In this document: piece by piece, positions 3,272-62,998 of the stretch | How the letters are laid out: each line of letters starts with the position of its first letter | Numbering within the stretch: the stretch's first letter is position 1 | Assembly: GCA_964016885.1 (NCBI GenBank) | Contig: OZ024747.1 | Location: forward strand, 34,472,001 to 34,536,000 | Direction of reading: 5' to 3' | DNA length: 64,000 nt | Origin: Eledone cirrhosa | Taxonomy: Eukaryota | Made by a program: the position numbers and the translations under genes | The notes under the pieces: generated by a model | Told to the model about the DNA's origin: nothing | Database searches by the model: none | The model's input: the letters and a program-made list of their open reading frames with translations, nothing else

Positions 3272-3337
<66 letters not shown>

Positions 3338-4945: not shown

Positions 4946-4959
4946 TATATATATATATT

Positions 4960-5390
4960 TAATATAGAAAGGGCTTCTACAGGACTAGAACTGATTCATT
5001 CGGTAGAAATCAACAGGAGGCCGACTGTCCAAGTCAGTGGTATTTATACCTTTTCTGGTGGTAGGAGAGGCTAGTAATTGGGATGGGTGGAGGTCATTGG
5101 TTGATGGATTTAAAGAAAAGTGAATTCTTTAAAAACTATATTTAGAGTGACAAAGGCAGAAATAATTCAACCTAAGTGCCTGTAGACAGATTCATACTGG
5201 AGGTGTGTGTGTGTGTATGTGTGTGTGGGTTGGGTGGGGGGGGGCTACAGATTTTAAGGGTCGTTTATCCAAACAATAGCTATGTATAAGAGTGTGCGTA
5301 TGTGTGTGTGCGTGTCTGATTGTAGATACCTGACCATTTTGGCAGACCTACCAATGAATAGCTATTTTTTGTCTAAACGACCCTTAAAAT
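4960..5390 (-). repeat. Putative PLE-type 3' repeat family (also 29270-29560 and arms of 61762-62235)
   Basis: Shared ggtatttatac...ggtaggagagg...gggtggaggtcattggttgat; degenerate HHR at ~4983-5016. Confidence 0.7.
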
Positions 5391-10735: not shown

Positions 10736-11560
10736 TTACAGATTAACAAAAGGTCTGAGTACTTGCAGAAACATGACAGCAACATACATAGGCGAGACAG
10801 CTCGTAGCAGAGGTGAAAGGATAGACCAACACTGGGGGGAACTAAAAGGACGAACAAATGGTTCAGTACTATACGAACATGCCAGACAGCAACACGACGG
10901 TAACATAGACAACATAGAAGTTAGAATAATATCTAAACATAGAAATGGCCCAGCAGATAGGCAAATCAGAGAAGCCAGCGAAATAGAACTTAGAAGGCCA
11001 AGGCTAAACAGAAAAAAATGAACGGAATAACAACCCCCAAACAAACTATACTGACCTAAGAAAAGTATAAATAAATAAAGAAATACATACACAAGCACAA
11101 TAACAACAAACACATATAAACACATACTAGTAAACTAAGTTAGAATACAATAACCAATACACAGTCACCAAAACACGAACACACATCAAACACTATACAC
11201 ACACGCAAACGCATGCGCAAAGAAGACAACAACTAATACATACATAAATAAATAAACAGACTAAATAAAGATGGCGTAGGCATACAATACAACGGGAGGA
11301 AACATAATAGCACAACTGACGATATTGCAGATGTGCAACGAAATAACTTTGTTAGACTATATATATGTGTTTGTGTCTATATTGTATCTATATTTTTGAC
11401 CGTTGGTCAGTCAATGGTAACATTGAGGACCGAATAAATTAAATTGACCGATATAAAAGACACAAGAGCGAAAACCAACCAAACAGTGAGTGTGTTCTGT
11501 TATTAATTCTGGCAATATTATTACACAAATATGACCCTCCCCATGTATAACAATATATAT
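10736..11560 (+). mobile_element. PLE family A 3' end: GIY-YIG endonuclease remnant + 3' repeat
   Basis: YIGETARSRGERIDQHW...SVLYEH...RQIREA...P.LN; HHR-like CUGACGA..UUGCA/UGCAAC-GAAA at 11316-11343; terminates atgaccctccccatgtataacaa(TA)n. Confidence 0.85.
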
Positions 11561-11577
11561 ATATATTTGACATAGAT

Positions 11578-17300: not shown

Positions 17301-17543
17301 ACACAGAGGAGACTGAGGTTAGCTGGACATGCTCACCGACATCCAGAGTTGACATTGCACTCAGTGCTCCTTTGGGAGCCCCTACATGGACACACTAGAA
17401 GAGGAAGACCAAGGTTAACGTATGTTGATTCCCTAAGGACAGACACTGGTCTGTTGGAGACGCAAGACATGGCACCGATAATGAGGGACAGAGACCGCTG
17501 GAGAGAACTCGTCCATGGATCTCGGGAATTTTACCCGCCTTAA
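14317..17543 (+). mobile_element. RTE-clade LINE, near full length
   Basis: APE (GT.YVRT, IKEHR, ISAYSPT, GD.NAH, SQIDFIL, SDH) and RT; flanked by (TA)n; sister copy at 56887-60140. Confidence 0.95.
16104..17543 (+). CDS. Residual open reverse transcriptase frame of the RTE LINE (479 aa)
   Basis: PKKGD..NYR.ISL, NQNGFR, FIDFRKAFDSV, GVLQGD.LAPYLF, EFADD, FLYLG, LLYGSETW, RRLRLAGH, RGRP; the upstream part of the ORF is disrupted. Confidence 0.85.
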   Translation: MASEVMKRCDFDDIILGFCNGALEKGVAPNQWRISNIVPVPKKGDLSNTNNYRSISLTSLVAKTLKRMILNRIQPEMEKFRDNQNGFREGRSTTNHILMLRRILEGARAKCFPAVMVFIDFRKAFDSVDPYCLMKILHAYGIPKKIVDLISLLYTNTKSQVITPDGMTEFCEILAGVLQGDILAPYLFIIVVDYCMRLALEKHQDSGFTVAPAQSRRVRAKKVSDAEFADDIVLVTNTVKEAEDLMREVETVSMSVGLRMNETKTKYLVEYVEKPEGITNVGGKPLELVEDFLYLGTKIGNTEDDVVERNTNAWAACHSLRWVWESDLRRDLKILLFIAVVESVLLYGSETWTLTKKLTQMVDGCYTRMLRMALNINQYTLRMKNSELYGSIPKVSSKVTQRRLRLAGHAHRHPELTLHSVLLWEPLHGHTRRGRPRLTYVDSLRTDTGLLETQDMAPIMRDRDRWRELVHGSREFYPP

Positions 17544-19694: not shown

Positions 19695-22600
19695 ATGGTG
19701 AAAGAGTGAAGAATAACATGATCAACAGTACAAACAGGTTTTATTTACAGTATTAACAATTGTTTCATTGATTAGGGTGTCTAAAATGTGTTAATCACAT
19801 GAAATTGTGTCATTCAATTTTAAATACATACATGCCTAATCAAATCATCGGAATAACTGATAAAAATTATACGCGGCGTTTGTAATATACTAGGAGAATA
19901 CAAATAAAAACATCAGTAATAAAGAAAGAAAAAGAAAAAAGAGAAGAGAAAATGAGAGAGTGAAAATAAAAAAATAAAAATAATAAAAAATAATAAATAA
20001 GTTAGAATGACGATGGTAAAAAATAAGTAAAAAATATATATGTGAAAATAATGAACATAATATGATTGTTGAAAATAGTTGTGGTGGTGCTTAAAGTTAT
20101 AGTGGTGTGTAAGTATAAATATGTGGTGGTATAAATATGAAAATATTAAATATAGCACATAACTTAGATAAGGAATTTAATAACCTCCAAGGAGGAATTT
20201 ATAGAGACGGTACACTCCTTTTACCTAAAAACTTAAGTAATCAAAACTTGGAAAGATTACGTAAAAACATTAGGATCTTCTTCAATAAACGAAAGTAAAG
20301 ATGATGTTGATGGTGGGGATGATGACGGCGTTGGTAATATGGGTGGTTACACCTGGATGGTGTTAGTGCCGAAGTTAACCTATATGTAAGTCTGAATGTA
20401 AGGAAAAAAGATAGGAAAATAAAATATAATAAAGGAAAATAAATAGAATACAAAGAAGCAAACATATATAATAAACAAAAAATAGGCACAGTATTGGGTC
20501 GTCAAGTATGACATCTGTAGAAATTTGTTTTTTTTTGTTCTACACATCTCTACAAATTTGACACCCTTCGACCCAATAATAAAAAAGCTAAAGCAGAAAC
20601 TACCCACTGCAATAACCTTATGGCTAGGCCTAGGTATCACTTTCGAACTTAATTCTAAAAAAGCTAACTTCTTAGATGTATCACTCAACCTAAACACAGG
20701 ACTAATAGAGCCCTTCCATAATAATAACGAAAATCTAGCCTACATTAGTTATAACTCAAACCACCCTCGCTCCATAATTAACTCCATAGCATATGGTGTA
20801 TCCCTCTGTAATTTCACGCTTATCTTCTAACCTAGAGATGTTTAATGAACACGCGAACTACTATAACATAGCTTTACTTAAGGCAGGCCACAAAGAGAGG
20901 CTCAAATACATACCAGAAATAAACAACAACACACTTAACAACAATAACACCACCCACACCTATAGAAATAACAAATATAGGACTAAACATAGAAATAGAC
21001 AACGGGCAGGAGAAATAAATGAACCGAATACTAATATAAGGACCCCTAGGAACTATAGAAGATCCAGAGATAGCAAATACTTATTGTTCAATCCAATATT
21101 TAACTCCTCTATATAAACCAAACTACCTTCTACATTTTTAAACTAATTGACAAGCAGTTCGCTAAACTTCACAAATACCATAAAATCTTTAATAAAAAAA
21201 CTAGCAAACTGTCTTACTCTATTGCAACCAGCATAGAATCACACATACATAAAATTAACTATAAAATAATCTCTAATGAAAATAACCTACAAACAAACAC
21301 CATAATACCAAATGCAAAACATAAACACATAACAACATCACAACCACACACACGTCAGAACGCATCACAAAAAAACATCAACAAACCCTAATCTCAGTCC
21401 ATACATGACAACATACAAAACACCATCGGATAACATGCACACAGGAAGGCCTCCAAATATAACTGTCACTTACCGGATAAGTGCCCACCCAAAAATAGAT
21501 GCCTGTAATCAAATATAGTGTACCTGTGTACTATAAATTCGGGCAACTTAGCATGGCACTACATAGGTTTTACGGCTGGAGAGTTCAAAGAAAAGATGGT
21601 ACGTTCACAGACATTCTATAAAGAACCATAAACTAATGAACATAACGCTGGCCAATAAAATCTGGCAGCTAAAGGATACATACCAAGAATACAGGATTAG
21701 CTGGTCGAAATTATCGGTTGCAAAAGCATACGTTAATGGAATGTTCCACTGCGGACTTTGCAATATGGAGTTGTTCCATATTTTGAAGTATGACAAAATG
21801 CTGCTGAACAGCAAAATAGAACGATCAATTTTCATGATTCGATCCAACAATCCCATAATTCAAGCTGAACCATTTAGAGTCTTTTATAATAACCCACTAT
21901 TATTAACTCTCAATAGACCAACTAATCACTAAATCAACATTATAATCTCCTAACCTCTATTTCTTTCACTAAAACTATTTCACCTCTTCCATTATATCTT
22001 ATCATGTTCTCTTCACCTCTCACATAACTTCCAATTTATTAATTTATTCTTTATTTATCATTGTGTTATTTCTTCCTAATATAACCCTCTTTTATTTAAC
22101 CAATACATATGTATATATTTAATATTTTCATATTTATACCATCACATATAAATTTACACACCACTATAAATTTAACCAAGACACCACCACAACTACTATT
22201 TTCAACAATAATATTATGTTCATTTTTTTCACATATATAAGTTTTTATTTTTTTTTTACCATCTTCATTCTAACTTATTCATTATTATTTATTGTTTTAT
22301 TCTTTTTTCTTTTTCTTTCTTTATTGCTGATATTGTTATTTGAATTCTCCTAGTAACAAACGCCCTGCATAATTTTTATCAGTTATTCCGATGATTTCAT
22401 TAGGCATGCATGTATTTAAAATTGAGTGACACAACTTCAAGTGATTAGCACTTTTTAGACATCCTAATCAATGAAACAATTGTTAATACCATGTTATTGT
22501 TGTAATACCATGTTATTCTTCACTCTTTCACTATTATTACTCCAACATTAACCTGCATAGGAATTCCCGAGAACTCGCCACCTAACTAAGGAAACCTCTT

Positions 22601-22896: not shown

Positions 22897-22959
22897 GCAC
22901 ACATACAAACACACACACACAGATATATGTATTCTTATTTATACATAAGAAAGTATATA

Positions 22960-24115
<1,156 letters not shown>

Positions 24116-24209
24116 CATATATACATATGCGTATATGTACGTAGCATGATATTTATATAAAACGTCTTTGATGTATAAAATATCTGGAAGATGAAACGGA
24201 CCAGTCAAC

Positions 24210-29240: not shown

Positions 29241-29618
29241 ATAATGTGTTAATAAATATGTTTAATTCGGGAATATTCATCAGGAAGCCGACTGTCCAAG
29301 TAATATGGTGGTATTTATACCTTTTCTGGCGGTAGGAGAGGGTGGTGATTGGGAAGGGTGGAGGTCATTGATTGATGGATTTAAAGAAAAGTCTATTCTT
29401 TAAAAACTCTATTTAGAGAAAGAAAGTCAGAAAAAAATCAAGCTAAGAGCATGTAGACAGATTCATACTGGGGGGGGGGGGGTAATGATTTTTAAGGGTC
29501 GTTTAAACAAACAATAGCTATTCATTGGTAGATCTGCCAAAATGGTAAGGTATCTACGATCATGCACGCACACACACATACCCTCACACCCACACATAAG
29601 CACACACACAAACACACA

Positions 29619-29678
<60 letters not shown>

Positions 29679-29759
29679 CATATATATATATACATATATA
29701 TATACATATATATATACATACACACATGTATACAAATACACATATACATATATATATCT

Positions 29760-30722
<963 letters not shown>

Positions 30723-30768: not shown

Positions 30769-33239
30769 ATTGAGGTTGGTAATGGCACATGGAATATAAA
30801 AGAGACAGAATACTTTTTTGTGAAAAAACATATAATTTTATAAGGTAAGGAAAGAATAAAGGGTATAAAAAATGACCGGTTTCGATGAGTCTGCAAAAGC
30901 CATATTTTCAAATGTTCTTTAATATTAAGAAAAATACACACGAATGGGAAGAATTATTCACACTTAGAAACAACCCTGAGATAACCATCAAAAAGCCGAT
31001 AAAGGCAGTACTGTTGTCATTATGAATACGGACTACTATAGGACCCTCGCACTTAACATTTTAGAAAACAACACATACTATGAAAAAACATAAAACTACA
31101 AACACACCAAAACAATGGGGAACCTTTTGACCTTACTGAATAAATACCGCAACAGCTTAACCACAAAAGAGTTTAACTCTATAAGCCACTTCAAATGCAA
31201 TATCAGCTCCTTTTCCGGCTTACCGAAACTCCACAAATGTAAACCCATAAACGATGCATGTGACACCTCAACCAACAATTACATTGAACTAACACCACCA
31301 GAAGACCTAAAACTCAGGCCAATTATAGCAGGCCCTACATGTGAAACCCACAGACTTAGCAACTTTCTGGACATCCTACTGAAACCCTTTCTACAACATA
31401 TACAGAGCTACATACGAGATGACCTTGACATGCTGAAACACCTCCCTAAAACAGTAAGTGCAAATACAATTCTTGTCTCCTTTGACGTAATAAACCTTTA
31501 CACAAACATACCCCACAACTATGGAATAACAGCAGTCCAATACTGTCTTAACACACACCCATAAGAAATACCGACACGCATCAACAAAGATTTTATCACT
31601 AACGGACTCCGCTTTATCCTACAAAATAACTACTTCACATTCAATGGTTCAACATACAGACAAGTATCAGGTACTGCAATGGGCACGAAAGTAGCACCCA
31701 CATATGCCAACCTAATCATGGGATTCCATGAACAACAAATATACAGTCAGTCCCTTCTCTTATTTGGAGACTCTTTCCACACACACCTCAAAGCCAATGG
31801 GAAAAGATATCTAGACGACTACTTTATCCTATGGCAAGAAGACATGAACTCACTTACTATGTTTAAAAACATGATAAACAACCAAGATAATAACATACAA
31901 TTCACAATGGAATCCAATCCCAAGGAATTAGCATACTTGGATATTCTCATCTCTGTAATAGACGGGAAATTAGATACAGATATATTCTATAAACCCACAG
32001 ATTCCAAGCAATACCTCTTTTTCACATCAAGTCACCCAAAACATACAAAACTTAACATTCCTTACAATTTGGCCAAACGTATATGTAGCATAGTATCAGA
32101 TCCACCTAAACGGGAGCAAAGACTAAAGGAACTAAAATACACCCTTATCTTAAGAGCCTTTCCACTTGAAATAATCAACAATCGAATAGACAGGGCAAAA
32201 CACCTAAATCCCCATCAACTTAACAATCCAAAACAGAAAACCACACTCAACACCCTGCCATATGTATCCACGTTCAACCCCAGCAATACCGAAATGTTTG
32301 ATCACCTACACAAAAACCTCCCCATCCTACTTAAAGATGTAAAAATGAAGTCTATTCTTGAAACACACAAGATCCTTAAAAGTGAAAGACAACCCAAATC
32401 ACTAAAACGCATTCTCACTGGACCAAATATACCCAAACCAATCCTCAACCCTACAGTTACCAAATGTGGTAGAATAATAGAACAAACTGTGGAACGTGCC
32501 TCTACCTCACTGAAGGACAAAAATTTACATTTAAAGATGGCCAAACATTTACAGTAAAAAACAATTTCATCTGCAACTCGGAGAACTTGATTTACGCAAT
32601 AACTTGCGGTGGGTGCAAACACAACTACATAGGACAGAGGGGCACCTCATTACGCAAAATAATGACCATCCACCGCCAACAAATCCGGGACGCTAACACA
32701 AGAAAAATCCCCTTGAGCAGCCATATTGCGAACTGCGCAGGAGTGACACTACCCAACTTTAAAATCTTCCCCTTCTACAAGTGCTCAGATTCGTTCACAC
32801 AGCAACAAATAATAAACAAAGAAAATCTATTCCTTAACAAATTTAAACCAAAACTAAACGGGTTATCACCCCAATAGAATTGTCATAAAATATAAACACA
32901 CATACGCACGGAGTGACAGATATGTGTGTGTATGTGTGCATGTATATAATTATCACTACTATTAAAGACCAGAGACCAATTCTGTAGAATCAGGTTTATT
33001 CGTTGACAGACCATGCCTTTGTGTGACCAACACATCCATTTTAAGCCGTGCACGTGCACACACATATATCTATATATATATATGCGCACACATAATTCAC
33101 CACTGTCGGTTGCGGGGCCCAATCTACATGAAGAGCTCAATGTGATCAGAATGACTTGTATTTTAATTTCACTGTTCTAACTTCTTATATTATGGAAAAA
33201 ATATATGCGTGTGTATATATATATATTTGGAGGCCATTT

Positions 33240-35869: not shown

Positions 35870-38800
35870 TAAACAACGACAGGGAAGTAACTCTAAGGAG
35901 ACATTGCAACCACAGAATCTCCTTCAACCACAGACTTAAACGCCCCCAAACCAGACTGGTACATTTGATCTGGGATAAGAACCTGAAGGATAAGAACCTG
36001 AAATGCTAGATCAAATGGTCCGTTAGGAGTCGCGTAACCCAAATTCCCACCGGGGGAAGCTACTGCAGAATGTGTCTGGCCGGATCGGCTGAGATGATTG
36101 AGTTAAAATCGGCCATAAATTTGAGATCAGATATTTGAGATCCTAATAAACTGCGGACTCACCAGGAAGAATACATTCTCCGCCTTGATATTCGGGAAGA
36201 ACAGATATATATCAACTGGAAAAAAGAAACATCTTGAACACAGAGACTATATTGACAGTAACAATCTAGCTAATATATGAAGAAATATTGTTAAGAAAAT
36301 GTTACTAACTTGATATAGAAATTGATCAGATCAAGCAATTAGTGCAAAGTCAGCGAAGGGAAAATGAAACATGTGTCAGTGAAAACGAAGTAAATTGTAA
36401 CACTTCAAATGCCAGGGTTGGGGCGGTATCACTGACAGTAGAACAAATTAAAGAAAGGATCGAAAAAGTGGAAGGAGTGCATGTTCAAGATGAAAACAAT
36501 GAGATCATCAATGATAAAGAAATGAATGAGAATGAACTCGCCAGCTTGAAGAATTTAATTATGATCGAATGGTTCAAAATCAAAGAACCTGACATAGGAG
36601 AACAAGACACTCTCCATAAAATCCAGAACTACAAACAAAACCAAAGGATAATACACAAGACTCACATAGCTCTCAAAGACATTACTCCACAAATAAACTA
36701 AACATCACTGATCTAAATCATTTCTACTATGCATCGGCTAAAGTCACCACTCAATTATGTGGAATTAAAATGAAAAAACGAAGTATTTCCTACAAAAAAC
36801 CTACTTGGCCAGAGAACATCAATCGACAAATAAACCTTCTCTGATCTGACAAAGAAATGTTAGCAAACTACAAAGTAGGTGAACATGTTAAACAAACTAA
36901 ACTTAGAAAATGAAAAAAGAAAATACAATATAAAATCAACAAGCGACGTAGACATGCTGATGGATAGACAGACAAATGAAAGATACAGCTCACCTTGAGG
37001 AACAAACATGGGAAAATATAACAGTTGAACAGTTGCGCTTTTGGCTCTAAGAAAAACCAGCAAATGGAAATCCCCAGGAAAAGACAAAATACAAAACTTT
37101 TGGATAAATGCCTTCACAGAGTCTCATGAGCTGTTAGCCCAACTTTACAATGAAATAGTTAAGGAGCCAGAAAAGATACCATCGTGGCTTGTTAAAGACA
37201 TTACATTCCTACTTCCGGAGAAATATGGGACAAACAATCCCTAAAATTACAGACTACTAACTTGATTGACCACAATGTATAAACTTTTAACATCTGTCCT
37301 AACTGAATATACATATGATCACCTGATAACAAATGACCTATTTCCCAATGAGGAGAAAGGGTGTAAACGAGACTCATATGGCTGTAAAGATCCGGTTCTG
37401 GTTAACAAAATTATATTGGAAGATTGTCATAATAGACACAAAAATCTATGAATTTTTTGGATGAATTACAAAAAGCATTCGATAGTTTGCACACAGTTGG
37501 ATTGAAAAATGTTTAGAGATTTTCAAAATATCTTCCGTTGCCAGGAAATTCCTGTCTTTCAGTATGAAGACATGGAAAACTACACTCCTTTTTAATAGTG
37601 AAAAACAATCCCTGGACGCTGGAGAAGTTAATATTAATTGTGGATTTTTTCAGGGTGACTCTTTATCATCGCTTTTATTCTGCATCGCACTTATAACATT
37701 AAGTAAAATGCTCAATCAAACAAAACATGGATATAAAGTCTATGACAAAACCATTAATCACTTGTTCTACATGGATGACCTGAAACTATTTGCAAAAAAA
37801 ATGATGAACAATTGCAAGGTCTATTATCCACTGTGAAGCAGTTCAGTGATGACATTAACATGGAGTTTGGACTAGATAGATGCGCCAAAGCAATGTTCAC
37901 CAGAGGAAAGCTGTTGAAAATTTCAGACATAAATCTTGATCGGGGGAATGTGATAAGAGAACTTGATCGAGAGGAAACTTACAAATATCTACTTGTTTGT
38001 GAAGGAGACGGAATCCAGCACTCGACAATGAGGGAAAGGATATGGAAGGAATGTTACCTTAGAGTAAGAGCAATCTTAAGAACGGAATTGAATGCAAGGA
38101 ATAGGATCATTACCATAAACACGCTTGCAATACCAGTAGTAACCTACAGTTTCAATGTCATCAACTGATCAATACAAGGCTCGATACAAAAATTAGAAAA
38201 TTCTTAACCATGCACAGAATGCAGATACAGATAGAATATATCTCCATAGGAAAGAAGGGGGACGTGGATTAATCCAGTTAGATATTGCTTTGAAAACTGC
38301 AACAATGGGATTATCTACATATCTAAGGGAGGCACATGATTGGATGATCAAACTCGTTTTGAAACACGAAAGCATCAAATGATCATACTCAATTATAAAA
38401 GATGCACAAAGATACAGTAATGAACTACACATTTCAGACGTTCCATTTACTACTGAAATGAAAAACACAAAAAAAGCAAAGCAGGTAAAAGTAACTGCAA
38501 AGAAAAAATCTGCTACAGAAACTGGCTAAGAAATGGCAAGAAAGCCTCTGTATGGAAAATACTCAGAAAGAGCTAACAATCCTAACGTTGAAAAAACATT
38601 AACCCATCAGAGACTGAAGGACAGATTATATCAGCACAAGATCAGTGTCTGCCAACAAATGATTATCAAGCCAACATAATAAAAAATGGATGCAACCCAT
38701 TATGCCGTGTATGTAAAAAACAACCAGAGACCATTGAGCATATAATTTCAATGTGCAGCTCTATAGCTCCAATCGAATACCTAAACAGGCACGAGAGAGC

Positions 38801-39405
38801 TGCACAATACATACATTGGATAATGTGTAAGCATTTTGACCTGCACCATGAAAAGAATTGGTGGAAGCATCAAACACCTCCCGTACTTGGAAAATATCAC
38901 ATCTCAATCTTGGGGAACTTTAGCATCCAAACAGACCGAAAAATAGATGCAAATAGACCTGATATAATACTGAAGGTCTTTAAAAAGAGGGTATGCCTGC
39001 TAATTGATATGTCCGTTCCAATAAACAAGAATGTATCTATTGAAAAATTGAGCAAATATACAGACCTGGAGTTAGAAATTGGAAAAATGTGGAAGTTGAG
39101 AACTAAAACAATACCAGTGGTTGTAGGCGCTCTAGGAATGATAACTAACCGGTCGAATGACTACTTATCGCAAATCCCAGGAAACCCGCGTATAGAACAA
39201 ATACAAAAGATATTACTAATGAGAACTGCCCTTATACTAAGGAAGATTCTGTCAATATAAGTACATCACAAGTCTAAACATCTAAAGATGCATGTGTGTG
39301 TATGTATGTTCTTTCTTAAACATGGCGTACCTTGTTGTCTCTTGAGGTCACTGGTTGTGACTTGATGATAACTCGATTGAACATAAAGCAAGGTAAATGC
39401 AGTAA
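35870..39405 (+). mobile_element. R4/Dong-like non-LTR retrotransposon (RT + restriction-like endonuclease), degenerate
   Basis: WKSPGKDKIQNFW, FQGDSLS, HLFYMDDLKLFAK, EFGLDRCA, GGRGL, CRVC...ETIEHI..C, RH, NRPDI, KY.DL, PVVVGALG; ends at (TAA)n. Confidence 0.9.
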
Positions 39406-41860: not shown

Positions 41861-41920
<60 letters not shown>

Positions 41921-41952
41921 CGCTCCATAGTTATATATATATATATATATAT

Positions 41953-42580
41953 ATAAAATATTAAAAATAATGAATAAAACAATGAAACAGTTCCTTATAT
42001 TAAACTAAAAAAGTTCATTATTTAACGATCGTTTCTAGGATATATATGTGTTAGAATTGGCATGCATATTCAACAGATCTATGTACAAAATTATACAAAA
42101 TTATACAAACTATCAAAATTAAATATACATACCAACACATATATATGCCGTCTTCAGAAATAATGAAATATATTTATTGATAATAACAACAATTCAGTTT
42201 TGAATTGTTGTTATTATCAATAAATATATTTCATTATTTCTGAAGACGGCATATATATGTGTTGGTATGTATATTTAATTTTGATAGTTTGTATAATTTT
42301 GTATAATTTTGTACATAGATCTGTTGAATATGCATGCCAATTCTAACACATATATATCCTAGAAACGATCGTTAAATAATGAACTTTTTTTGTTTAATAT
42401 AAGGAACTGTTTCATTGTTTTATTCATTATTTTTTTAATATTTTATCTTGACTCTGTATTCCGTTTATCTTTCACCGAAAGTGATTTTTCATTGCATCTC
42501 TTCTTTCCATGATATCCGGATTACATTGAGTTCTTCATACGGATTGGACACTACCGTAAACTCTTGGTAGATTTATCTAC
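41953..42580. mobile_element. Hairpin cassette P5: ~245 bp near-perfect arms (41953-42445) + unique tail, between (TA)n tracts
   Basis: Apex aattca-gttt-tgaatt at 42191-42206; only a couple of differences between arms. Confidence 0.95.
42230..42383 (+). ncRNA. Type I hammerhead ribozyme (mirror copy 42014-42167, minus)
   Basis: UUCAUUAUUU-CUGAAGA-[long stem II AUAUAUAUGUGUUGG/CUAACACAUAUAUAU]-GAAA-CGAUCG-UU-AAAUAAUGAA; perfect 10 bp stem I. Confidence 0.88.
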
Positions 42581-42616
<36 letters not shown>

Positions 42617-42796
42617 GAGTGTGCGTGTGTGTATATATATATATATATTGCTTAAACGTTAATCTGTTATTTTAATAAATATTTGCTCTAGGGTTCTTAT
42701 ATATTTGATATATATTTACCCATATCGAACCCACTTTGGATTTTAGTGTTCACATTTATTATTAACTCTATAAATATCTATCTATCTATCTATCTA

Positions 42797-44628
<1,832 letters not shown>

Positions 44629-45700: not shown

Positions 45701-46419
45701 TAATTGAATGGTTTCGACTTAGCACCATGTATCTGAATACAAGTGCTAGCTTACTCTTATAGAGGAATCAGAGCAACTGGATGCAGCCCATCGATCCCAT
45801 ATTTATATACATGTATATATAACCATATATGTCTGAATGTATGGATGTATGTATATATGTGTACGTGTGTGTATATATCGTGAGAGTAACTGTGTTTTCA
45901 AAGTGTTATTAATTCGGCTTCGTATTCGTTCCGTTCCGTTTTTGACTCCATTACGAGTCATTTACCTTAGTTTCAGGTTGTCCTAGGCCTTTAGAGTGAA
46001 TAAAATCTTCTCTAGACATTAAAAAACATTATACTTGACAAAAAAGTGCATTACCAGACATTCCGCACGTTATAAAGTAAAGAGCATGGGTTGGCGTATC
46101 AATATGTAAACTAAATGACTAATTCTGTTTTCCTTTTTAAAGAATCGGAGGAGACAGCCTAGAAAAATATCTATCCCACCCCACTATTATTTGGGACCCG
46201 AGAGTGTATAACAATGATATTGAGAATCACCTAGTTAATCCCTGGGCCAAAAGGCCAACATGCTTTCTCTAAAATTTCAGAATGAAATCAGATATGTATC
46301 AATATGGCTAAGCAATTCATTTTCAAATATGTTGCTTATGGCATCTCCCAGGCTAACGCCATGAGCAATATATAAAATGAAGTCATATCTCAAAATACGT
46401 AGACTCGCTGGGTCTACGT

Positions 46420-48435
46420 ACCAGCTTGGCTAGAACATTCTTTAGAGTACTGGATAAATGTTTCCCTAAGGCCCACAGGTACCATAAAATATTCAACAGG
46501 CACACGGTGAAACTTTCCTACTCAACCACACGTTCCGTAGCCCAGCTCATAGCCGGCATAAATAGGAATAGACTCAATGCCTCTAATACCACCGTAAACC
46601 CCGGAGCCACCCAACAGAACCACCACGCGGGATGCATCAGACCCCGGACAGGCCCAACTAACACAGCGGAACCCAACGACACTGTGCTGATTGCGGCGGC
46701 TGCCCAGATGGTAACCACGCGCTACATGTGCAGAGGCTTAAGAAGTCATGCAATTGCAGAGACCCATCACTATGCTCCCTTAGTAATGAATGCATGACGA
46801 AAAACGTAGTCTACAGGTGCAAGGTCACACCCCTAACTCGGAGCAGCACTACATAGGATCCACGGCGACGAGCTTCAAAGATAGGTGGTATAACTATCAG
46901 GACTCCTTTAACAGAATAGAAAAGAGGAAATGTACGGCCCTTTCTGAATTGATCTGGAAGCACAAACTTGAAAAGCCCCGCACTCTCTGGTCTTGTCCGT
47001 GGTTAGAAAGGTTCCCCCAGACAGAGGTGGGTCTGGTATTAGCAACAGCTGTCTTAGTGAGACACTCGAAATACTACATGGCGGAACCAAGCTATTAAAC
47101 AAAAGGGCCGACTTATTTGGCGCCTACGGACACCTAAGGACGGGAACTTTCCTCAAGGTATATGGATTAACCCCGGTTATGGCCTCCCACAACGCCCCCC
47201 CCTGTAGGTCCCCTACATCCCGTACCAAGACCAATGGGCAACAACACCCATCCATGGTTTGTGGTCCCTACGGTGGATTGTCCACCTCATACTCTACTGG
47301 TTAGGAGACAGCAAAATCACGTTTATTGAACCTGAGGATCCCCCCCCCGGGGAGTGGCCCGCTCGGTAAGAACAATCATCCTTAGGTACTAACCCTATAC
47401 GCATGAATGCGTGCCTGCAACCGTCGTTGTGTGTGTATACTGTGATTACGTGAATGTACACACTTATGTAAACGCAATGAAATAATAATACCACAGGTTG
47501 TATTTGAAAAATGTTCGAGTATATTTGAGTATAGAGTATATTTGTATATGCTCTCTTGTATGAGTTCACATGTGTATATAAACATACATACGCATCCAGA
47601 GGTATACAAGTGTGGGTGGGTGCTTGTACCTATATATGTCTGTACTAAGGGATTCACCTAAGCTCCAAAGACCCTAAGCTATTGCTGTGAAGATATATAT
47701 ATCACACTCTACTTTTGTCTAGTCTAAACAATAACTTTTCCAAACACCCACTTTACTTTTCTTTAAAAATAACACCCACCTTGTTTTATTTCTGCCATAT
47801 ACTTGGATTTGGGGGCCTCTGCTGTATATATATATACACTTGTGCGTACATACATATATATACACACCTGTTTGGATTTGTTTGTGTAGATATGTGTGTA
47901 TGTATGTGGGGGTAGGTGTGAGTGTATGTACAAGTCAACCAACATAAGTCTTTTTATTTGTAAACTTTCTAAATATTTGACTCTAACCATAATTTTCTTG
48001 TATTACCACCCCACATAAATTCCTCAATTTAAGAATGACCTGTAGTATCGAATTTCATACTATAAAACCTCAATTGAATATATATCTGACCAGGAATGAT
48101 TTTTGTGAAAAACAGTCATATGAAACTATTGTCATCTTGCCTCACGGTTTGAACTGTACAACACCAGCTGCCTCTTTGAAGTCAAATACCAACCCTACTA
48201 GTATGTACAAACTGACAAATTAGAATTAAGATTATTACTGCTGACTACATTAAGTTATCCCTAACAAGCTCATATGCCCCAAGGCTCTGAAACCATCAAC
48301 ACCATCAACACAGAGCTGGCATATCTAAGAACTGACTAAATGCCTGATGAGATAATAGCCATTCAATGGCTATCATCGAAATATATATAGCAGTAAATAA
48401 AGGATTATGAGTCCATGCAATTGACGGATGTTTCG

Positions 48436-48507: not shown

Positions 48508-50159
48508 TTTAATTCCTGCATGTTTGTCTATTTTTGTTTGTTTGTTCAAGAACAACTCCTATGGTTTTGGAGAGAGACTCCCATGACCATTTTTATTCTG
48601 AAAGTACATTTCCCACCGTACTTGGATAAGTATATTTCATTTTTATTAAAGATAAGGAGAAATAACAGATGAGGAATTTAAAGATAAGAGATAAAGCGTA
48701 AAGGGTAGAGGTAGAAGTAAGGATAAACTAAAGATAACAATAAAGTGATGATAATATAAGAAAATATTAAAATATAATAAAAAATAATAAAAATAAAAAT
48801 GAGAATAAAATATGAGTATAAAAGGGGATAAACATAAACATAAAATAAAAATGAAGCATAAAAGATTATATAATCAATGCAAATAAATGCAAGCAAGTGT
48901 AGTTGTAGACAGTAAGGGATAATATTAACGAAAATAATCATATAGTGGATTCCATGTATCCATCACAGTATGGCAACAAGTGTTATAGGTGGCGTTCAAA
49001 TGCAATTTATATATGTGGTTCACAGAACATATAGGTCGCTAAAGCAAAGCGTAGTGGAAGCAGGTGAAAGCAATCATCATGGATATCAGTAGATTATAAC
49101 GTTTACGTGTGTGTGTGTGTTTGGGTGTAAGTCTACATAGACCTACGTACATACGCACACACTCATATATTTATATATAAATACATACATACATGTATCA
49201 ACATGTTCCATTCGTCCGTGATACCCCTTACGATTACAATACCATCCACTCCAGTCTCGTGTTGGGATCAATACCTCCGCATCATAGCTGTGGGGTTGTG
49301 AGTCCATGAAATCCCAAGATTCTCAGCATACCACATGGACGTAACTATACATATCAAGCTGTAAGGTACATTCGCCGCATCCACAGTATCGCTTACTATA
49401 TTCCAACCTGGTACAATGGTACTCCAATATGTTCTAATTTAATTAATTAAATCAAATCAATTGACCGTTTAATTCCAGTGTTTGCAGCGTTCCAGTGCTT
49501 CTATGTTCTTCACTTTGCTCACATTTAAAGATCAACACTCAGAATATGATGACGTAGTAAACATTTCGAGTGGACATCATAATGCTCTTAGCAGGCTGGC
49601 CATTCCCTTGGGGGAAGGATAAGGGAGGTCAGTCAGGCCGTCTATTTACGAAGATACAGATTAAATCATTCCGTGATAAGGGGGGACAACTCTAGATTGT
49701 ATCGATTTTGACCAAACACGCCAGCGACAATAAACGCAATATCAAATACCCCCCTCCCGCCGGTATGAGTTGTTTACCCACACTGAAGCCGGTTATGGCA
49801 TCAATGTTGGGTTCACTCATAGCACCAGACAGGAATAATCACTACAGTCTGTTATTTGAGCAATCCTTTTGGGACTGTTGTTAGCAGTATTCCTACATTA
49901 ATTGATCTCTATGAACGCAGGGTGATCTTACCACACTAAAATGTACCATTCCTCGAATTCCAGGTCAAATCCAGTGAAATCGAATTTGAGGTCCCCTTCT
50001 TACTAGTTGGGTGCGGGTACATTAAGGGGTATGCAAGTTGAAGAGATAAATGAGTGCTAAAGAAGAAGATAAATGAGTGTTAAAGAAAAGAAAAAGAAAA
50101 ATAACCTAAGTTAAGAACGGCTTATCTAGATACTCGGCTTAAAATAGAGGAAAGAACTT

Positions 50160-50920
50160 AGGATTATATGCGGACAGGAGGAAAATATGTCAGATTTCCT
50201 ATTGAGCAGGTTTTGTCTGGAGTAAACTATGGCTTGAGATTCCAAAAGGCAGAGGTTACACATTTTGCTCGGTGGGCGATAAGGTGCAGACCTAGCCAGC
50301 TGTCTCCAATTAAGAGTATAGGAGGTGCCGGCTTTTTTTTTAAAACGGAAATATAGCCTGCCAACGAGGTTGTATTCTTAAGCCTATCATGTCTAAAGGT
50401 GCTTCTATGTGAGTTATATCTCGTTTTAAACGAGGTGGATGTTGAGCGAATGTAGGTGTTGGTAGAGGTAGGTGTTGTGACGTCACAAGCGTAGACTATA
50501 TTTTTCATGAGGCAGTAGCCCCTGAGAGGGCAACTATCTCTCTGCCTACAATTGTAGTTGCGCGTTGTGTCATTCAACATGCTTCGGGGCGGGTGGCTAT
50601 TTGCACTATCCCGAAGGATTACTTATGCATTTGGTGGGTCACTACCTCCATCAGGCAACCTATTTCCCAGTGGGTTAGGTGGTTGGTGGTTATTTTTAGA
50701 TCTGATGGTCTCAAAACCTTCCCTAATTTTCCTATTATTTGTGCGTGCTAAGTGTGAGGCTAGATTAGGTGTAGTAGAATAGGATAATTTAATTGTAATT
50801 TTATTGATAATACTGTGATATCTACTGCCTGGCGGGAAGTTCTTTTCTAGTATCGAGAAGAATATTCTAGGAAGGTTGGTAAGGACTTCGGAGTTATAAG
50901 GTTGGTTGAAATAAGTGTCC
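50160..50920 (-). mobile_element. Naiad-like PLE fragment (GIY-YIG region)
   Basis: YFNQP, IKLSYSTTPN, NCRQRDSCPLRGYCLMKNIVY..YI.ST.TSFKTRYNSH, LLNRK. Confidence 0.85.
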
Positions 50921-52809: not shown

Positions 52810-55800
52810 TTTGTTACGACCCCAGTCCAGTTTCACTTCTGACGCACCTCGTTCCCCGACTCACTACCACTTTTACTCTACTACATTCCTCTCAGCCGTC
52901 TATTTATCACTCCCGCACTAGTACCTTCAATATTCCCAATCTTAATTCTTTTCTCCGCCAGCTCCATTATACTCTCAATCGCTTCCACCAACCACTCCCT
53001 CTATATGCATCCAATCCTCCCTGCATCTCTCCAACCTCATCTTCACCAAAATACGATACCACAGTCACATCACATTTTTAAGTCGCTATCTCCACCACCC
53101 CCTCATTCCCCGTGGTTTCCGCCTTAAGTTTCACCGCACCTCTTACTCTGCTCCATTCACTGAGCCCATCCTTACCCACTCCTCTCGCCAGCTCATACGG
53201 GAGACCATTCGATCAACTCTCGCCCAAATCCGTTCTCTCGACCGAGATCTCCCCAAGGCCTACCTCCATCTCTCCTCCACTTGCCACCCTTTTCTCGCCC
53301 AAACCCTTTTCTAATTCATCTTTTACTTCAATCGCCTCCTTTTCAATTTCTTCAATTCCGCAAAAAATCATAAACTCGACTCTCTCCGCTCCCCGCCTGT
53401 CGTCACCACCCATACTCATATCACGCCCAACCCTAAGCCCTCTATCCCGTCACCTACCACTGAATCTGCACCCGCTTTGCCCAACCACTTTGACCCCTCC
53501 GCTTCCGCCTCTTTCACTACCTCACGTCCCTGCACTGTAATCACCATACCCCAGGACCTACCACTCTCCAAAGCTGAGAGCTCCCTCCTGACCATGGTTT
53601 GGGTTTTATACCAACCACATCTACCTGCGACTAGTTCCGCACACGTGCCGAGATTGAAGGGTTCTTCCGTCGATTAAAGCTGAAAGCTTTTTTTCATGAC
53701 ACGCCATCATCAACACAGACAGATGACTTCACTCGTCTCAGTCGCCGGCAATCACATTGGACCTCGAGCTCTGGCCAGTTCAGCACACTCGACTCCTTTG
53801 TCGATACTTGGCGGCGTACTGTGAATCGGTTCCGTTTCCACCAGCATTCTCGTCGCTCTAACATCCCGTGAACTGAGCTATCCACTCTTCGCAACCTTCG
53901 GTGTCGCGATGACATTGTCATCAAACCCGCTGACAAAGGTGGCGCTGTGGTGGTTTGGAGTGCTGATCTCTATAGTGCTGAGGCTCTCCGCCAGCTTCAC
54001 AATACCCATTGTTACCGCCCTTTATCCACCGACCCCACTCCTGGCTACCAACAACTCTTGTCCTCCACCATCCACGAGCTCAGCTCCTCCTCTCACCTAC
54101 CTCCCAGAGCCTCCAACCTTATAGTGTGCACCCCTCGCACACCCACCATCCACTTCCTCCCTAAAATACACAAACAAAATAATCTTGGCCGTCCTATCGT
54201 TTCACCGTACAACTGCTCCACCGAGATAATTTCTGAATATTTAGACACCATCCTCGCGCCATTGGTCGGCAATCTCCCCTCCCACATCCACGATACAAAT
54301 GATGCCCTTAGACTTTTCAACTCTTTCTCCTTCCCTCCTGGTCCCTCCCACCCTCTCTTTACCCTAGACATCACTTCTCTCTGTACCGTCATGCCTCATG
54401 ATGACGGCCTGCACTCTCTCCAGCATTTATTAGATTTACGCCCTACACCTTACCCCAGCACTACCACTCTTTTCTGTCTGTTTGAGCTTGTTCTGACCCC
54501 AAATGGATTTTCTTTTTCGGGTGAATTTTACCAGCAGGTCTCTGGGGTAGCGATGGGAACCAGAACTATGCCAACTTGTTTGTTGGCTACGTCGAAGCCC
54601 ATATCTTCTACCAATACGCTGGACCGACTCCTGAGTTATACGGTCGTTATATCAACGACTGTATCGTCACCACCTCTCTATCACGAGAACAGTTCGACTG
54701 TGTTCTTTCTTTTGTCCAACCTTTCCATCCTGCTCTCAATTTCACCGCGTCCGTCTCCGATTCTTCTGTCGCTTTTCTAGATATCTCTCTATCTATTAAT
54801 CACTCTCACCACACCTTCTCTACTTCCATCTACATTAAGCCAACATACTCCCAATCTTATCTCAACTTCACATCCTCCCATCCAACCCAAACCAAACACT
54901 CCATAGCTTATTCCCAATTCCTCCGGCTTCGTCGACTCTGTAGCCAGGACGACAATTTCGAAACCCATTCCCTTCGCATGGCTTCCTGCTTCATCCAGCG
55001 TGGATATCCCCACCTTGATCCAAGTTACCCTCACCTGAGCCCGTGAAACAGACCGCACCACAGCCCTCTCACCTCACCCCCGCCCTCCCAACACCCGTAT
55101 TCCTTTCCCTCTCACTTACCACCCCAGTACCCTACCACTCCGGCGACATATCCTCCGTTCCTTCCGAATCCTCTCTTCTGACCCCGTCACTTCTCGCTTT
55201 TTTCCCAACACACCCATTACTGCTTTTAAGCGCGCCCGAAACCTGCACGACCTCCTGGTTCGTAGTTCTTTTTCGTCCTCTCCCACGACTCCACCCAGCT
55301 CTCATCCTTGTCCCGTTCCCGCTGCAAAACTTGTCCCTTTATTTCCACCATCACCGATCGTACAGGCCCTAATGGGTCTTTCCGTATCCGCACTTCCTTC
55401 ACCTGCACATCCACCCACGTTGTGTATGCCCTCCGGTGTTCCCTTTGCGGTTTTTATATATCGGGCAAACGGGACGCCGTACGGCGGACCGTTTTTCCGA
55501 ACATTTGAGGGACATACAACTCGGTTTGGATACTCCTGTCGCCCGTTATTTCTGTTCTCCTGGTCATTCTTCCCTACATGTTTCAGTGCTGGGTGTCCTT
55601 TTACATCATGGATCACAGGCCTCGCGCACCAGGACTGAAGAACGTCTGATTCAACGCCTTGGGTCCTATTCCCTTCTTGGACTCAACTCACCTCCCCAAT
55701 TTCTCTAATACCCCGTCCATTATCACACACCTAGATTCCTATCACTTTCTCTTGATAATTAGCAGCTTCTCTTACTACTAATACATACCGATATACACCC

Positions 55801-56886: not shown

Positions 56887-59800
56887 AGGGCGGGTAAAAT
56901 TCCCGAGATCCATGGGCGATTTCTCTCTAGCGGTCTCTGTCCTTCATTATCGCTGCCATGTCATGCGTCTCCAACAGACCAGTGTCTGTACTTGGGGCAT
57001 CAACATACGTTATCCTTGGTCTTCCACTTCCAGTGTGTCCATGTAGGGGCTCCCACAAGAGCACTGAGTGCAATGTCAACTCTGGATGTCGTGAGCATGT
57101 CCAGCTAACCTCAGTCTCATCTGTGTCACTTTTGAACTGACATTTTGGAGGCTCCCATACAGCTCTGAGTTTTTCATCCTCAGAGTATATTGATTAATGT
57201 TCAGAGCCATCCTCAGCATTCTCGTGTAGCACCCATCCACCATCTGAGTGAGTTTCTTGATCAGTATCCAAATCTGAGGCCCGTACAGCAGCACAGACTC
57301 CACTACAGCAATGAAGAGGCGGATTTTCAGGTCTTTACGAAGTCCGACTTCCACACCGATCTCAAGCTGTGGCACGCCGCGTAGGCTTTGCTCTTCCTCT
57401 CAACCACATCATCTTCCGTATTCCCAATCTTTGCTCCCAAATACAGGAAGTCCTCAACCAATTCTAGCGGCCCTTCGCCTACATTAGTGATCCCCTCTGG
57501 CTTCTCAACATTCTCTATTCATTCTCAGCCCCACACTCATCGACACAGTCACAACCTCCTGCATCAAATCCGCTGCCTCCTTCACTGTAGTTGTCACCAA
57601 AACTATGTCGTCGGCGATTTCAGCATCTGATATCTTTTTCGCCTTAACTCTCCTGCTCTGAGTCGGTGCTACAATAAAGCCAGAGTCCTGGTGTTTCTCC
57701 AGTGCAAGGCGCATACAATAGTCCACTACAATGATAAAAAGGTAGGGAGCCAATATATATCCCTGGAGCACTCCAGCCAGTATCTCAAAGAACTCTGTCA
57801 TCCCATCAGGTGTAATTACTTGGGCTTTGGTGTTGGTGTAGAGCAGTGATATCAGGTCCACTATCTTCTTGGGGATTCCATAAGCCTGTAAGATCTTCAT
57901 CAGGCAGTGACGGTTCACAGAATCAAAGGCCTTCTTAAAATCAATGAAAACCATGACCGCAGGAAGGCACTTTGCTCTAGCTCCCTCTAATATCCTTCTC
58001 AGCATCAGGATGTGACTGGTGGTTGATCTTCCCTCTCTGAAGCCGTTCTGCTTGTCCATGAGTTTCTTCTCCATCTCAGGGTGAATCCTGTTAAGAATCA
58101 TCCTGTTGAGGGTATTTGCCACAAGTGACGTCAGTGAGATCCCCTGTAGTTGTTGATGTTGGAGAGATCTCCCTTCTTTGGCACTGGGACGTGGGACGAT
58201 GTTACTGATCCTCCACTGATTCGGGGCAACTTCTTTCTCCAGTGCCCGGTTACAGAACCCTAGGATAATATCATCAAAAGCACACCTTTTCATCACCTCT
58301 GATGCCACTTCATCTTCTCCACGAGCCTTGCCCTCCTTGATCCTCTTCTTGGCTCTCTGAAGCTCATCTCTGGTGAAGGGCTCTGTCTCAATATCCAATT
58401 CTTCAAACAGCCGCCTGATCTTCCCAGTGCTCTGGGTTGTGGAGGGTGGCCCTCCAAGTAGGGTCCTAAAATGTTCTAGCCATTTCCTCTTCCTGTCCGC
58501 GGGCCCTCTTCCCTAGATCTGACTCAAACACTTTCTCTTCCTCCCTGTGATCTCGTTGATGATCATCCAGCTCTCCTTACATCCAGATCTGTCAACCGCT
58601 CTCTCCACACTTCTGATCTTCTCTACCAGTTCCTCCTCTCTGGCCTCAGTGTAAGCGGTACAGAGTTCTTCCATCATCAGCTCCACAGTCTCCATCCTCT
58701 CCTCCGTAGGATCAGCAAAGAATTGGTCCTTGGCAGCTTTCAGGTGTTCTCTGGCTGCACACACTTTTGGGTTTGCAGAGCTGACGTGCTTCCATTTATT
58801 CTTTTTCCTCGGCACCTGGGTCTCACTTTCTTCCACCACTGCATTGGTGAAGTGCCCGTACCTCCTCTTCACACTCTCCTCAGTCCATCTAATCTCTCTC
58901 TCCTCTGTCTCTCCACACAGAGCACTGAACCTGTTGCTCATTTCCACTTTGAACTTCTCCTGTAGCTTATCATCTTCCTTGAAAGCTCCCCAATCGGGGC
59001 TGAGCCTTGCTCTTTATTAAGCTCACCCGGACCTCACTCATAACAAGCCGCCGGTCACTACCCATTGTACTGAAATAGCTGTATGGTTCTGTGTTCAGAA
59101 CACTAATCTGCCACTTTTTCCTCACCAGAATGAAGAGAATCTGGGACTTGGACAGTTGCATATCTGAGATATAGGTCTACATCTTCACCGGATTCTTCCT
59201 AAACCTTAGGTTGGTCGCTATCAAGTTCGCCTCCAGCAGGGTGTCTCTCAGTAGTCTTCCATTTCGGTTCGTGTTGTTATGGAAGTACCAGCAAGGATCT
59301 TCACTGCCCTCCTTACTCAGATGTGCATTGAAGCCCCCCAAAACAAGCAGGATGTTGTGTGATTGTGTGGTGTTGACAGCTCTACACACCTCCTCATGGA
59401 ACTCTTCCGCACTCACATCACTGTCTCCCTCGGTTGGACTATAGGCTGAGATGACTCTCAGTCTTGGGTTTCCATTGAAGGTCACTCTCAACTTTCGCGG
59501 GGAGACAGGCATTATTTCCCTCACCAATAGACTGGTTTTTGTGCTAAAAACAAAACCCACTCTTCCCAAGCAGCATTGGTCATGTTCCTCACTGCTGATG
59601 TGGTGATGAGCTGGTTCCTCTTCCCAATCATGACACTCCTCACGGGTCATCGTGTAGGATCCTGTGTTTTTGGATCGCAAATATCTGTAAACCACTCTCA
59701 TCGAACATATGTCCCAACTCCTCTCTCTTCTCCAGCGTCCGACTAGACCTCACATTCAAAGTGCCCATTTTGATGGCTCTTCTGCAGGACAAAACTGCAT

Positions 59801-61693: not shown

Positions 61694-61761
61694 GTTATTC
61701 CGAGTTGAATCGGAGGTAACCACAGTAAGTAAGGTACTCAATACATAGCAGAGTATAAAAG

Positions 61762-62235
61762 TTTTAATATAGATGAGAATCTACAGGACTAGAACTGTTT
61801 CATTCTTTAGAAATCATCAGCAATCAGGGTATCAAAAAATAAATATGGTATTTATAGGTCTCTTCAGGTGGTAGGAGAGGGTAGGGAGTGGGATGGGTAG
61901 AGGTCATTGGTTGATAGAAAAGGGAATTCATTAAAAGCTAATTCTTTAAATCTATTATTTATATTTAGAGTAACAAAGGCAGAAAGTATTCTGAACTTGT
62001 TTATAGAGTTCTTTCTGCTTTTGTTACTCTAAATATAAATTATAGTTTAAAGAATTAGCTTTTAATGAATTCCCTTTTCTATCAACCAATGACCTGTACC
62101 CATCCCACTCCCTACCCTCTCCTACCACCTGAAGAGACCTATAAATACCATATTTATTTTTTGATACCCTGATTCCCGATGATTTCTAAAGAATGAAACA
62201 GTTCTAGTCATGTAGAATCTCATCTATATTAAAAC
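61762..62235. mobile_element. Hairpin cassette P6 (~225 bp arms) with a minimal HHR in each arm
   Basis: Arms are near-exact reverse complements; HHR 61787-61825 (minus) GAUUG-CUGAUGA-UUUC(UAAA)GAAU-GAAA-CAG-UUC-UAGUC; mutated mirror at 62171-62209. Confidence 0.92.
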
Positions 62236-62244
62236 TATATATAT

Positions 62245-62283
<39 letters not shown>

Positions 62284-62285
<2 letters not shown>

Positions 62286-62594
62286 CGATATTAAATAAAT
62301 GGAAACTATATTTATAAAACCATATTTATTTCATTATATATATTTCAGGGATATCATATTAAAACTATGTTATGCCTTCTTCAGACAAAATACAAATATT
62401 GTATTTTGTCTGAAGAAGGCATAACATATTTTTAATATTATATCCCTGAAATATATATAATGAAATAAATATGGTTTTATAAATATAGTTTCCATTTATT
62501 TAATATCGTAAATATACTCCAAATACTTGTTGAGTGCTTTTATATCAGTTATAAATATTTACTCGTTGTTAACCCAACAATTTAAATAAAACTT

Positions 62595-62597
<3 letters not shown>
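62284..62597. mobile_element. Hairpin cassette P7 (~112 bp arms, 62284-62510) + tail, HHR in each arm
   Basis: Apex acaa-ata-ttgt at ~62397; HHR 62402-62467 UAUUUUGU-CUGAAGA-AGG...CCU-GAAA-UAUAUA-UA-AUGAAAUA. Confidence 0.92.
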
Positions 62598-62661
<64 letters not shown>

Positions 62662-62667
<6 letters not shown>

Positions 62668-62948
62668 CAACATAAGGTCTGCCTGTACGATCTAGAAAAT
62701 AATAAATCAATACTCACAGACTCATATGGGCAAAAAGCCCATATGAGTCTGTGAGTATTGATTTATTATTTTCTAGATCGTACAGGCAGACCTTATGTTG
62801 TTGAATTAAGATTTTTCACTCTAGCGATCTTATTAGTCAATTGCAACTATAACATGTAAATGTTTATCAAATATTAATTTATACTGCTCAGAAGCGATTC
62901 CTAGAGGTGAAATGATTGTAAATGACCTCCTTGAGTCTAAACTCTAAG

Positions 62949-62950
<2 letters not shown>
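62662..62950. mobile_element. Hairpin cassette P8 (perfect 70 bp arms, 62662-62806) + tail
   Basis: attcaacaacataagg...atatgggc-aaaaa-gcccatat...ccttatgttgttgaat; no convincing HHR core. Confidence 0.9.

Positions 62951-62998
<48 letters not shown>

Follow-up and report, generated by a model that had tools for sequence, protein, structure and literature searches.

Short inverted copies of a Penelope-like element in Eledone cirrhosa and their possible origin by twin-primed reverse transcription

How does a palindrome with a ribozyme motif in each arm come to stand inside a (TA)n microsatellite, and what kind of genetic object is it? The question is raised by a locus in a 64,000-nucleotide stretch of the Eledone cirrhosa genome (contig OZ024747.1, positions 34,472,001 to 34,536,000; the window below), in which an initial annotation, made from the letters alone, described a near-perfect palindrome with a 4-nt apex, bounded on both sides by (TA)n. 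The palindrome and its boundaries are as described: the two arms are identical apart from one substitution and a 2-nt indel, the apex reads GTTT, and (TA)n tracts are present on both sides (Table 1). Judged by its sequence, the cassette is the terminal repeat (pLTR) of an autonomous, protein-coding Penelope-like element (PLE) and not a new class of RNA. We propose, with a probability of roughly 65%, that it is a short head-to-head pLTR insertion into (TA)n that arose when a single capped sense RNA underwent twin target-primed reverse transcription.

Table 1. Features of the palindrome and of two further cassettes in the window (positions are those of the window; pLTR positions q are counted from q1 = 42201)
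Feature	Position	Strand	Remark
(TA)n target microsatellite, left side	41864..41955		with a short interruption
Tail-less arm	41953..42196	-	pLTR fragment q1-q246; stops at fixed site A (...ATTTTAT, then (AT)n)
Type I hammerhead motif, second copy	42167-42014	-	predicted cut between 42024 and 42023
Apex GTTT	42197..42200		TTT templated by upstream pLTR sequence, G extra
Tailed arm	42201..42446	+	pLTR fragment q1-q246
Type I hammerhead motif	42230-42383	+	predicted cut after 42373
Initiator-like TCATT	42231..42235	+	A at 42233 (q33) is the apex hot spot of the family and the inferred capped start
Tail, 5' UTR of the element from site A to site B, about 135 nt	42447..42583	+	ends in ...TCTACATA, then (TA)n
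(TA)n target microsatellite, right side	42581..42640
Second Hydra-like family, same architecture	62278..62598	+	hammerhead 62402-62467 and mirror
Stub of 567-bp non-coding tandem/inverted (TA)n-inserting element	62662..62952	+

The parent element

A 22-mer from the 3' half of the ribozyme occurs 7,362 times as an exact pattern in the 3.0-Gb genome. A similarity search of the same genome with the arm plus tail came back blank, which is uninformative since exact patterns gave thousands of copies. Full elements were located in the stretches between distant pairs of 22-mer matches. At locus L045, two pLTRs 7,081 bp apart flank an open reading frame of 813 aa that encodes a reverse transcriptase-endonuclease (P0001). 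The tail of the palindrome had been called unique, but it is the 5' UTR of the element itself and runs on in long copies into this reading frame, whose ATG lies at q534, about 150 nt past the tail.

The protein contains YRDD at residue 346 and, read from the translation, a C-terminal VY-x12-YIG, together with a set of motifs of the Hydra type, namely RWR at 37, DKT at 115, CNCRNKANC (the CxCx5C linker) at 673, CRLC (CxxC) at 771, and CNH (CxH) at 799. Pfam gave no significant match for P0001, a sequence search of the PDB likewise failed to recognize it, and none of its 118 homologues carries a name. The element shows the features of EN+ Penelope-like elements, i.e., a single reading frame combining reverse transcriptase with a C-terminal GIY-YIG domain, partial-tandem pLTRs with an inverted 5' copy and a tail at one end, and a hammerhead motif in the pLTR. 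Of the characteristics of the Hydra clade, it has the motif set (with RWR in place of RWK) and insertion into (TA)n, but not the length below 3 kb toward which the clade tends, the unit measuring 7,081 bp. In its protein motifs, the parent element matches the Hydra clade; Naiad and Neptune affiliations were considered first and dropped on the published clade definitions.

Compared with the Hydra clade as characterized in the available text of Craig et al. (2021; PMC8557442), the element shares RW(R), DKT, the CxCx5C linker, and CxxC plus CxH near the C-terminus, as well as the pLTR hammerhead, (TA)n insertion, and tandem or inverted copies with a tail. It differs in its unit of 7.1 kb, with a long microsatellite-rich 3' part, versus 'generally <3 kb'. 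For PLEs, the same text gives a tail of 30-40 bp, in contrast to about 135 nt here, and for the Hydra clade RWK, where RWR is found here. The earlier suggestion that such cassettes are extremely 5'-truncated, inverted PLE insertions with a terminal-repeat hammerhead is thus sustained, the autonomous parent being present in the genome.

Other remnants of mobile elements lie in the window. Broken Hydra-like reading frames, 30-50% identical to P0001, are found at 9979-12904, 20579-21821, 46405-46563, and 50132-50916, and further fragments that by eye look like Penelope-like reverse transcriptase or endonuclease at 31094-32557, 43701-44219, and 53872-55638. RTE-like LINE copies lie, oppositely oriented, at 15921-17543 and 57505-59749 and are 94% alike over 551 nt, additional LINE fragments occupy 7064-9207, 29522-30520, and 38592-39260, and a degenerate (TA)n tract of 1.2 kb extends over 22954-24128.

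The hammerhead motif and the other palindromes

According to the initial annotation, each arm contains a complete type I hammerhead. On the plus strand, the motif consists of a 10-bp stem I (42230-42239 with 42374-42383), CUGAAGA at 42240-42246, GAAA at 42362-42365, a stem II arm of 115 nt, a self-complementary stem III (ACGAUCGU), and a GUU cleavage triplet, and none of 30 shuffled windows contained such a motif at a stem I of at least 8 bp. So far the description stands, with some reservations: the stem II pair adjoining the core is C.A and not G-C, stem III is minimal and of the dimer type, and Rfam gave no hammerhead match in the 64-kb window or in four other loci, its only matches in the window being low-score, miRNA-like ones to hairpins and microsatellites. 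The C.A pair, at what we take to be positions 10.1/11.1, recurs in nearly all copies of the family examined, and the copies of the motif in this first family are too uniform for any covariation. In predicted folds of the isolated motif, the core is intact and the hammerhead lies at most 1.3 kcal/mol from the minimum free energy.

The metazoan PLE hammerheads described in the accessible part of Cervera and de la Pena (2014; PMC4209133) are likewise of type I, with a long helix II and a short palindromic helix III of the dimer type, and pairs on opposite strands 100-700 bp apart are reported there for Schistosoma. The motif studied here departs from them in its 10-bp helix I, its 115-nt helix II arm, and the C.A pair that takes the place of the conserved G10.1-C11.1.

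A ribozyme plus its antisense had been expected from transcription in either direction. Each strand does carry a motif, but on both strands the antisense arm precedes the ribozyme arm, and the predicted fold of the entire cassette is one long duplex that buries the ribozyme. As modelled, the hammerhead would be a passenger of the pLTR, locked in the duplex of a read-through transcript, and would not set the position of the apex.

Six further sites had been listed as having the same architecture with unrelated sequences. All six (2552, 2933, 28805, 61760, 62278, and 62662) are indeed palindromes, but in a relaxed scan 62278 alone yielded a complete hammerhead motif; 28805 yielded a degenerate one, and 2552, 2933, 61760, and 62662 yielded none. 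Nor are all of them unrelated, the palindrome at 61760 being 72-82% identical to the stretches 29309-29439 and 4939-5168. A related palindrome family with CTGAAGAGACC comprises 61760-62236 and these two stretches and also occurs at L006, L196, and L199; the scan found no complete hammerhead in it. The region 2933-3279 belongs to a dispersed palindrome-plus-tail family in (TA)n, also seen at L050, L064, L085, and L088, in which no hammerhead was detected. Further copies of the palindromes at 2552, 2933, 28805, and 61760 were met by chance in other loci examined.

Two of the sites represent families of their own (Table 1). The family at 62278 has 11,433 matches and its own reading frame, 46% identical to P0001 over 485 aa. 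Among 56 of its copies, N7 of the hammerhead varies freely while the other core bases are nearly invariant, a sequence pattern that selection on the ribozyme would give. The family at 62662 has 260 exact matches, tandem and inverted arrays, and two fixed (TA)n ends (unit L170:1501-2067). Its longest open frame is below 50 aa, and neither a hammerhead nor an Rfam match was found in it. It is probably non-autonomous and mobilised in trans by a PLE. The initial annotation had considered a distinct non-autonomous class, which is unsupported for the pLTR family of the main palindrome; the idea fits the 62662 family with its 567-bp non-coding tandem unit, though without a detected hammerhead.

Fixed ends, apex, and joints of the inverted copies

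Copies of the family terminate at one of two sites about 135 nt apart, either A (q246, ATTTTAT followed by (AT)n) or B (q381-383, TCTACATA followed by (TA)n). The same two ends bound inverted copies that range from about 100 bp to more than 10 kb, some with intact reading frames, and nearly every inverted insertion examined, including most of the kb-long ones, has one A and one B end. The exceptions are L037+38, with A at each end, and L036, without an A end in the stretch examined. At L037+L038, the inverted match reaches into flanking DNA, which suggests a larger inverted duplication. The B-site pattern has 4,789 matches; in a hand count of the first 100 listed, 93 enter A/T-only sequence, mostly TATA, and seven continue into the element (ATTT). 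From these first 100 matches, 56 B-anchored loci were drawn, the others continuing into the element or belonging to loci already collected. An adjacent inverted arm is present in 23 of the 56 (a spurious TA-only match, L113, was dropped). In 18 cases this arm stops at A and is flanked by (TA)n-like sequence; in the other five the alignment is broken at a subfamily indel, and no inverted arm ends at B.

The position of the apex is similarly restricted. At 1,083 loci, both arms end within a few bases of q33, the A of a TCATT that we take to be initiator-like. Exact arm stops number 1,531 at q33 versus 232 at q34, these counts being based on exact patterns that leave out G in the case of q33 and T in that of q34, so that arms ending at q34 and followed by T were scored as q33. 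Among the first 100 arms listed, 41 stop at q32-37 by hand count, one of them probably a chance match; the first 100 rows listed come from C1 (from C1-C4 in one search). A fixed apex had been proposed as the mark of a discrete family, a test that proves misleading: the apex is fixed at this large number of loci, but its joints vary among copies and may be blunt, show 2-4 nt of microhomology, or contain a few added bases. Some joints recur, namely AAATAAT-CTGAAG, AAAT-ATTT, and AAATAATCT-TTATTTC, the last in about 10 of 100 rows.

The base that follows the stop is C in the antisense direction (a non-templated G in sense) in 32 of 100 rows at q33 versus 10 of 100 at q34 (Fisher p=2e-4; hand counts on the first 100 matches listed per search). 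About 13 of the 32 possibly come from the partner arm through microhomology at q32, q40, q184, or q247, and about 19 are clear. An extra G stands before the A arm in L002, L020, and L108, and in L002 before the B arm as well. In LINE-1 insertions, an extra G at full-length 5' ends is described as a cap mark in the available text of PMC11702581. From the joints in the DNA, we infer a capped transcription start at q33. In the second family, 458 palindromes have their apex close to a TCACT situated about 90 nt upstream of the ribozyme; in 100 rows, 20 arms reach the A of TCACT, and C is the next base in 10 of these 20 (hand count). Since this family behaves alike at its own TCACT, the start-site apex with a cap-like G is repeated in a second family. 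A spliced 5' exon was also considered for the second family and dropped, the extra bases being subfamily variants of the upstream sequence.

The copy in the window is atypical in that its apex lies at q1, 32 nt upstream of the usual apex of the family, and may reflect a read-through template or a minor start. A few other arms (L040, L055, and L110) halt at q-7 to q4, as does the window copy (42197-42201), possibly at a minor upstream start.

Formation of the inverted copies

Taken together, the fixed A and B initiation sites, the apex at a start site with a cap-like G, and the non-overlapping arms favor twin priming. According to this proposal, the endonuclease would nick the symmetric (TA)n target on both strands, and the two 3' ends would prime on the same RNA, one at site B and one at site A, with both cDNAs extending toward the 5' end of that RNA. 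With priming in the 5' pLTR, the capped start would be reached after only about 210 and 350 nt, and the 3' ends of the cDNAs would then be joined bluntly, through 2-4 nt of microhomology, or with a few added bases, yielding a palindrome plus tail. The B cDNA would often stall at or behind the A primer and thereby leave non-overlapping arms, and priming in the downstream pLTR would give kb-long inverted copies.

Several observations on the two arms bear on this. The arms do not overlap in 9 of the 23 short inverted copies, 14 of the 23 A arms begin at q29-41, and copies with an intact A arm and a shortened B arm outnumber the reverse by 8 to 1 (p=0.04). The kb-long copies have unequal arms, and in L033+34, L043+44, and L055 the A arm contains sequence that is missing from the B arm. 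In 22 overlapping palindromes, 93 variants are common to both arms versus 18 in one arm; the arms of one copy share variants and hence derive from one template or source. Counting against twin priming, the recurrent AAATAAT-CTGAAG and AAAT-ATTT joints fit the snap-back of one cDNA equally well, and later one-sided deletion could be an alternative source of non-overlapping arms. With odds somewhat better than even, the stubs may constitute a genome-wide record of PLE integration, in which one capped sense RNA would be reverse-transcribed from a pair of fixed internal sites, each target strand using one of them, and the apex would mark the transcription start at single-base resolution.

Precedents for parts of this scheme exist. 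The Poseidon element PAc of Anolis, as presented in the available text of Frangieh et al. (2024; PMC11167929), begins reverse transcription internally on its RNA, at two sites corresponding to its tail, cleaves and extends both target strands, and is modelled as a dimer; hammerhead cleavage is dispensable in vitro. It thus shares with the present family two fixed initiation sites bounding the tail, extension on both target strands, an AT-rich target, and insertion without a need for hammerhead cleavage. It belongs to another clade, and that text derives neither the inverted structure nor a start-site apex and leaves the later steps open. LINE-1 twin priming, as outlined in the same part of PMC11702581, has in common the internal priming of a second cDNA by the other target strand, an inverted segment, and a cap-derived G; the copies described here differ in their fixed priming sites, frequent inversion, often full arm overlap, and lack of poly(A).

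The object itself is ordinary, inverted pLTR-plus-tail insertions and opposite-strand pairs of PLE hammerheads being already in print. What is added is mechanistic, as the formation of inverted PLE structures is stated to be open in the available texts of both Craig et al. (2021; PMC8557442) and Frangieh et al. (2024; PMC11167929). In the literature searched, which did not extend to subscription papers, Repbase notes, and supplements, neither a derivation of these structures from twin priming nor a capped-start apex was found. Twin priming, if true, would explain the inverted pLTRs and the one-sided tail together, would contradict the model of antisense self-priming, and would make PLE start sites mappable from DNA alone; two abundant families provide exact predictions for a test in vitro. 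In addition, thousands of long perfect hairpins could give double-stranded RNA, if transcribed.

The alternative that survives best is fold-back self-priming, which we regard as improbable. Here, one cDNA would run from B to the 5' end of the RNA, snap back, and copy itself to A, with later deletion removing the overlap. Many joints are short microhomology palindromes of the kind expected from snap-back, variants are common to both arms, and self-priming is argued for in the accessible part of Arkhipova et al. (2013; PMC3846280). Moreover, the arms of the window copy overlap fully and its apex lies at q1, so fold-back may have produced this particular copy. The initial annotation had offered insertions frozen at a self-primed fold-back step as one of two readings, but non-overlapping arms mean that fold-back copying cannot be the general rule. 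The absence of overlap in those nine pairs and the 8:1 bias toward intact A arms speak against it, as does the fact that in some kb-long copies the A arm exceeds the B arm in length. The extra G is found on tail-less arms (both arms in one copy), and its place at the 5' end of the sense strand is evidence against an antisense template. Penelope, as covered by the available text of Arkhipova et al. (2013; PMC3846280) and Schostak et al. (2008; PMC2377424), resembles the present family in its head-to-head inverted pLTRs, one-arm tail, initiator-like TCACT/ACATT, and start site within the pLTR; the difference is that antisense self-priming is invoked in the former paper, whereas the present joints speak for two priming events on a capped sense template.

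It is very unlikely that the cassette is a discrete palindromic element, non-autonomous and of a retrozyme-like or MITE-like kind, that is copied whole with a fixed apex. Such an element would account for the sharp apex at so many loci and for the recurrence of some joints, such as that with AAATAATCT, and the 62662 family is indeed non-coding. Heterogeneous joints are at odds with copying of a finished palindrome, and so are the asymmetric A and B ends, the fact that the same ends bound copies over the whole size range, some with intact reading frames, and the fact that palindromes are spread over several subfamilies, with the two arms of every pair agreeing with the subfamily they belong to. 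Two established classes were rejected on their definitions: the MITE/TIR class in view of the asymmetric ends and the variable lengths and joints, and the non-LTR retrozymes because the cassette is an inverted stub of a coding element and the tandem 567-bp family lacks a detected hammerhead. Non-LTR retrozymes share a type I hammerhead and an origin from PLE pLTRs but form non-coding head-to-tail tandems in the available text (bioRxiv 10.64898/2026.07.22.740005), in contrast to the head-to-head stub of a coding element described here.

Still less probable is a direct role of the ribozyme, either through hammerhead cleavage, with the resulting 5' end of the RNA becoming the apex, or through selection of the hairpin as a ribozyme/antisense switch. 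The apex lies near the predicted cut site at 23 loci, both arms coming within 1 nt of it at seven, falling at the centre of stem III at another seven, and being scattered at nine; besides, 2-3 of 56 B arms begin at q173-174. Seven loci are few beside 1,083, the usual apex lies 7 nt (first family) or about 90 nt (second family) upstream of CUGA and not at the cut site, and the predicted cut site is the centre of a TTAA, which favors microhomology joints there. The conserved core of the second family, with its freely varying N7, would fit selection on the ribozyme, but of the seven palindromes in the window, four or more have no detected hammerhead.

Finally, an assembly or library artefact, which amplification might produce since it can generate palindromes, is hardly credible and is ruled out at the level of the family, if not for this very locus, by raw short reads and contigs: the strand-switch joint at q32/33 is present in raw Illumina reads of X22 (4 reads with 3 starts, and 3 reads with 3 starts) and, at the main apex, in contigs of runs X1 and X4, both (TA)n ends, A and B, are visible in hundreds of raw reads of X21 and X22, and base-exact ends with hot spots in two families would not be expected from such an artefact. 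Run X4, labelled as another organism (B), contains the same family, with both the q33 joint and the A end (compared with L043:6050-6800).
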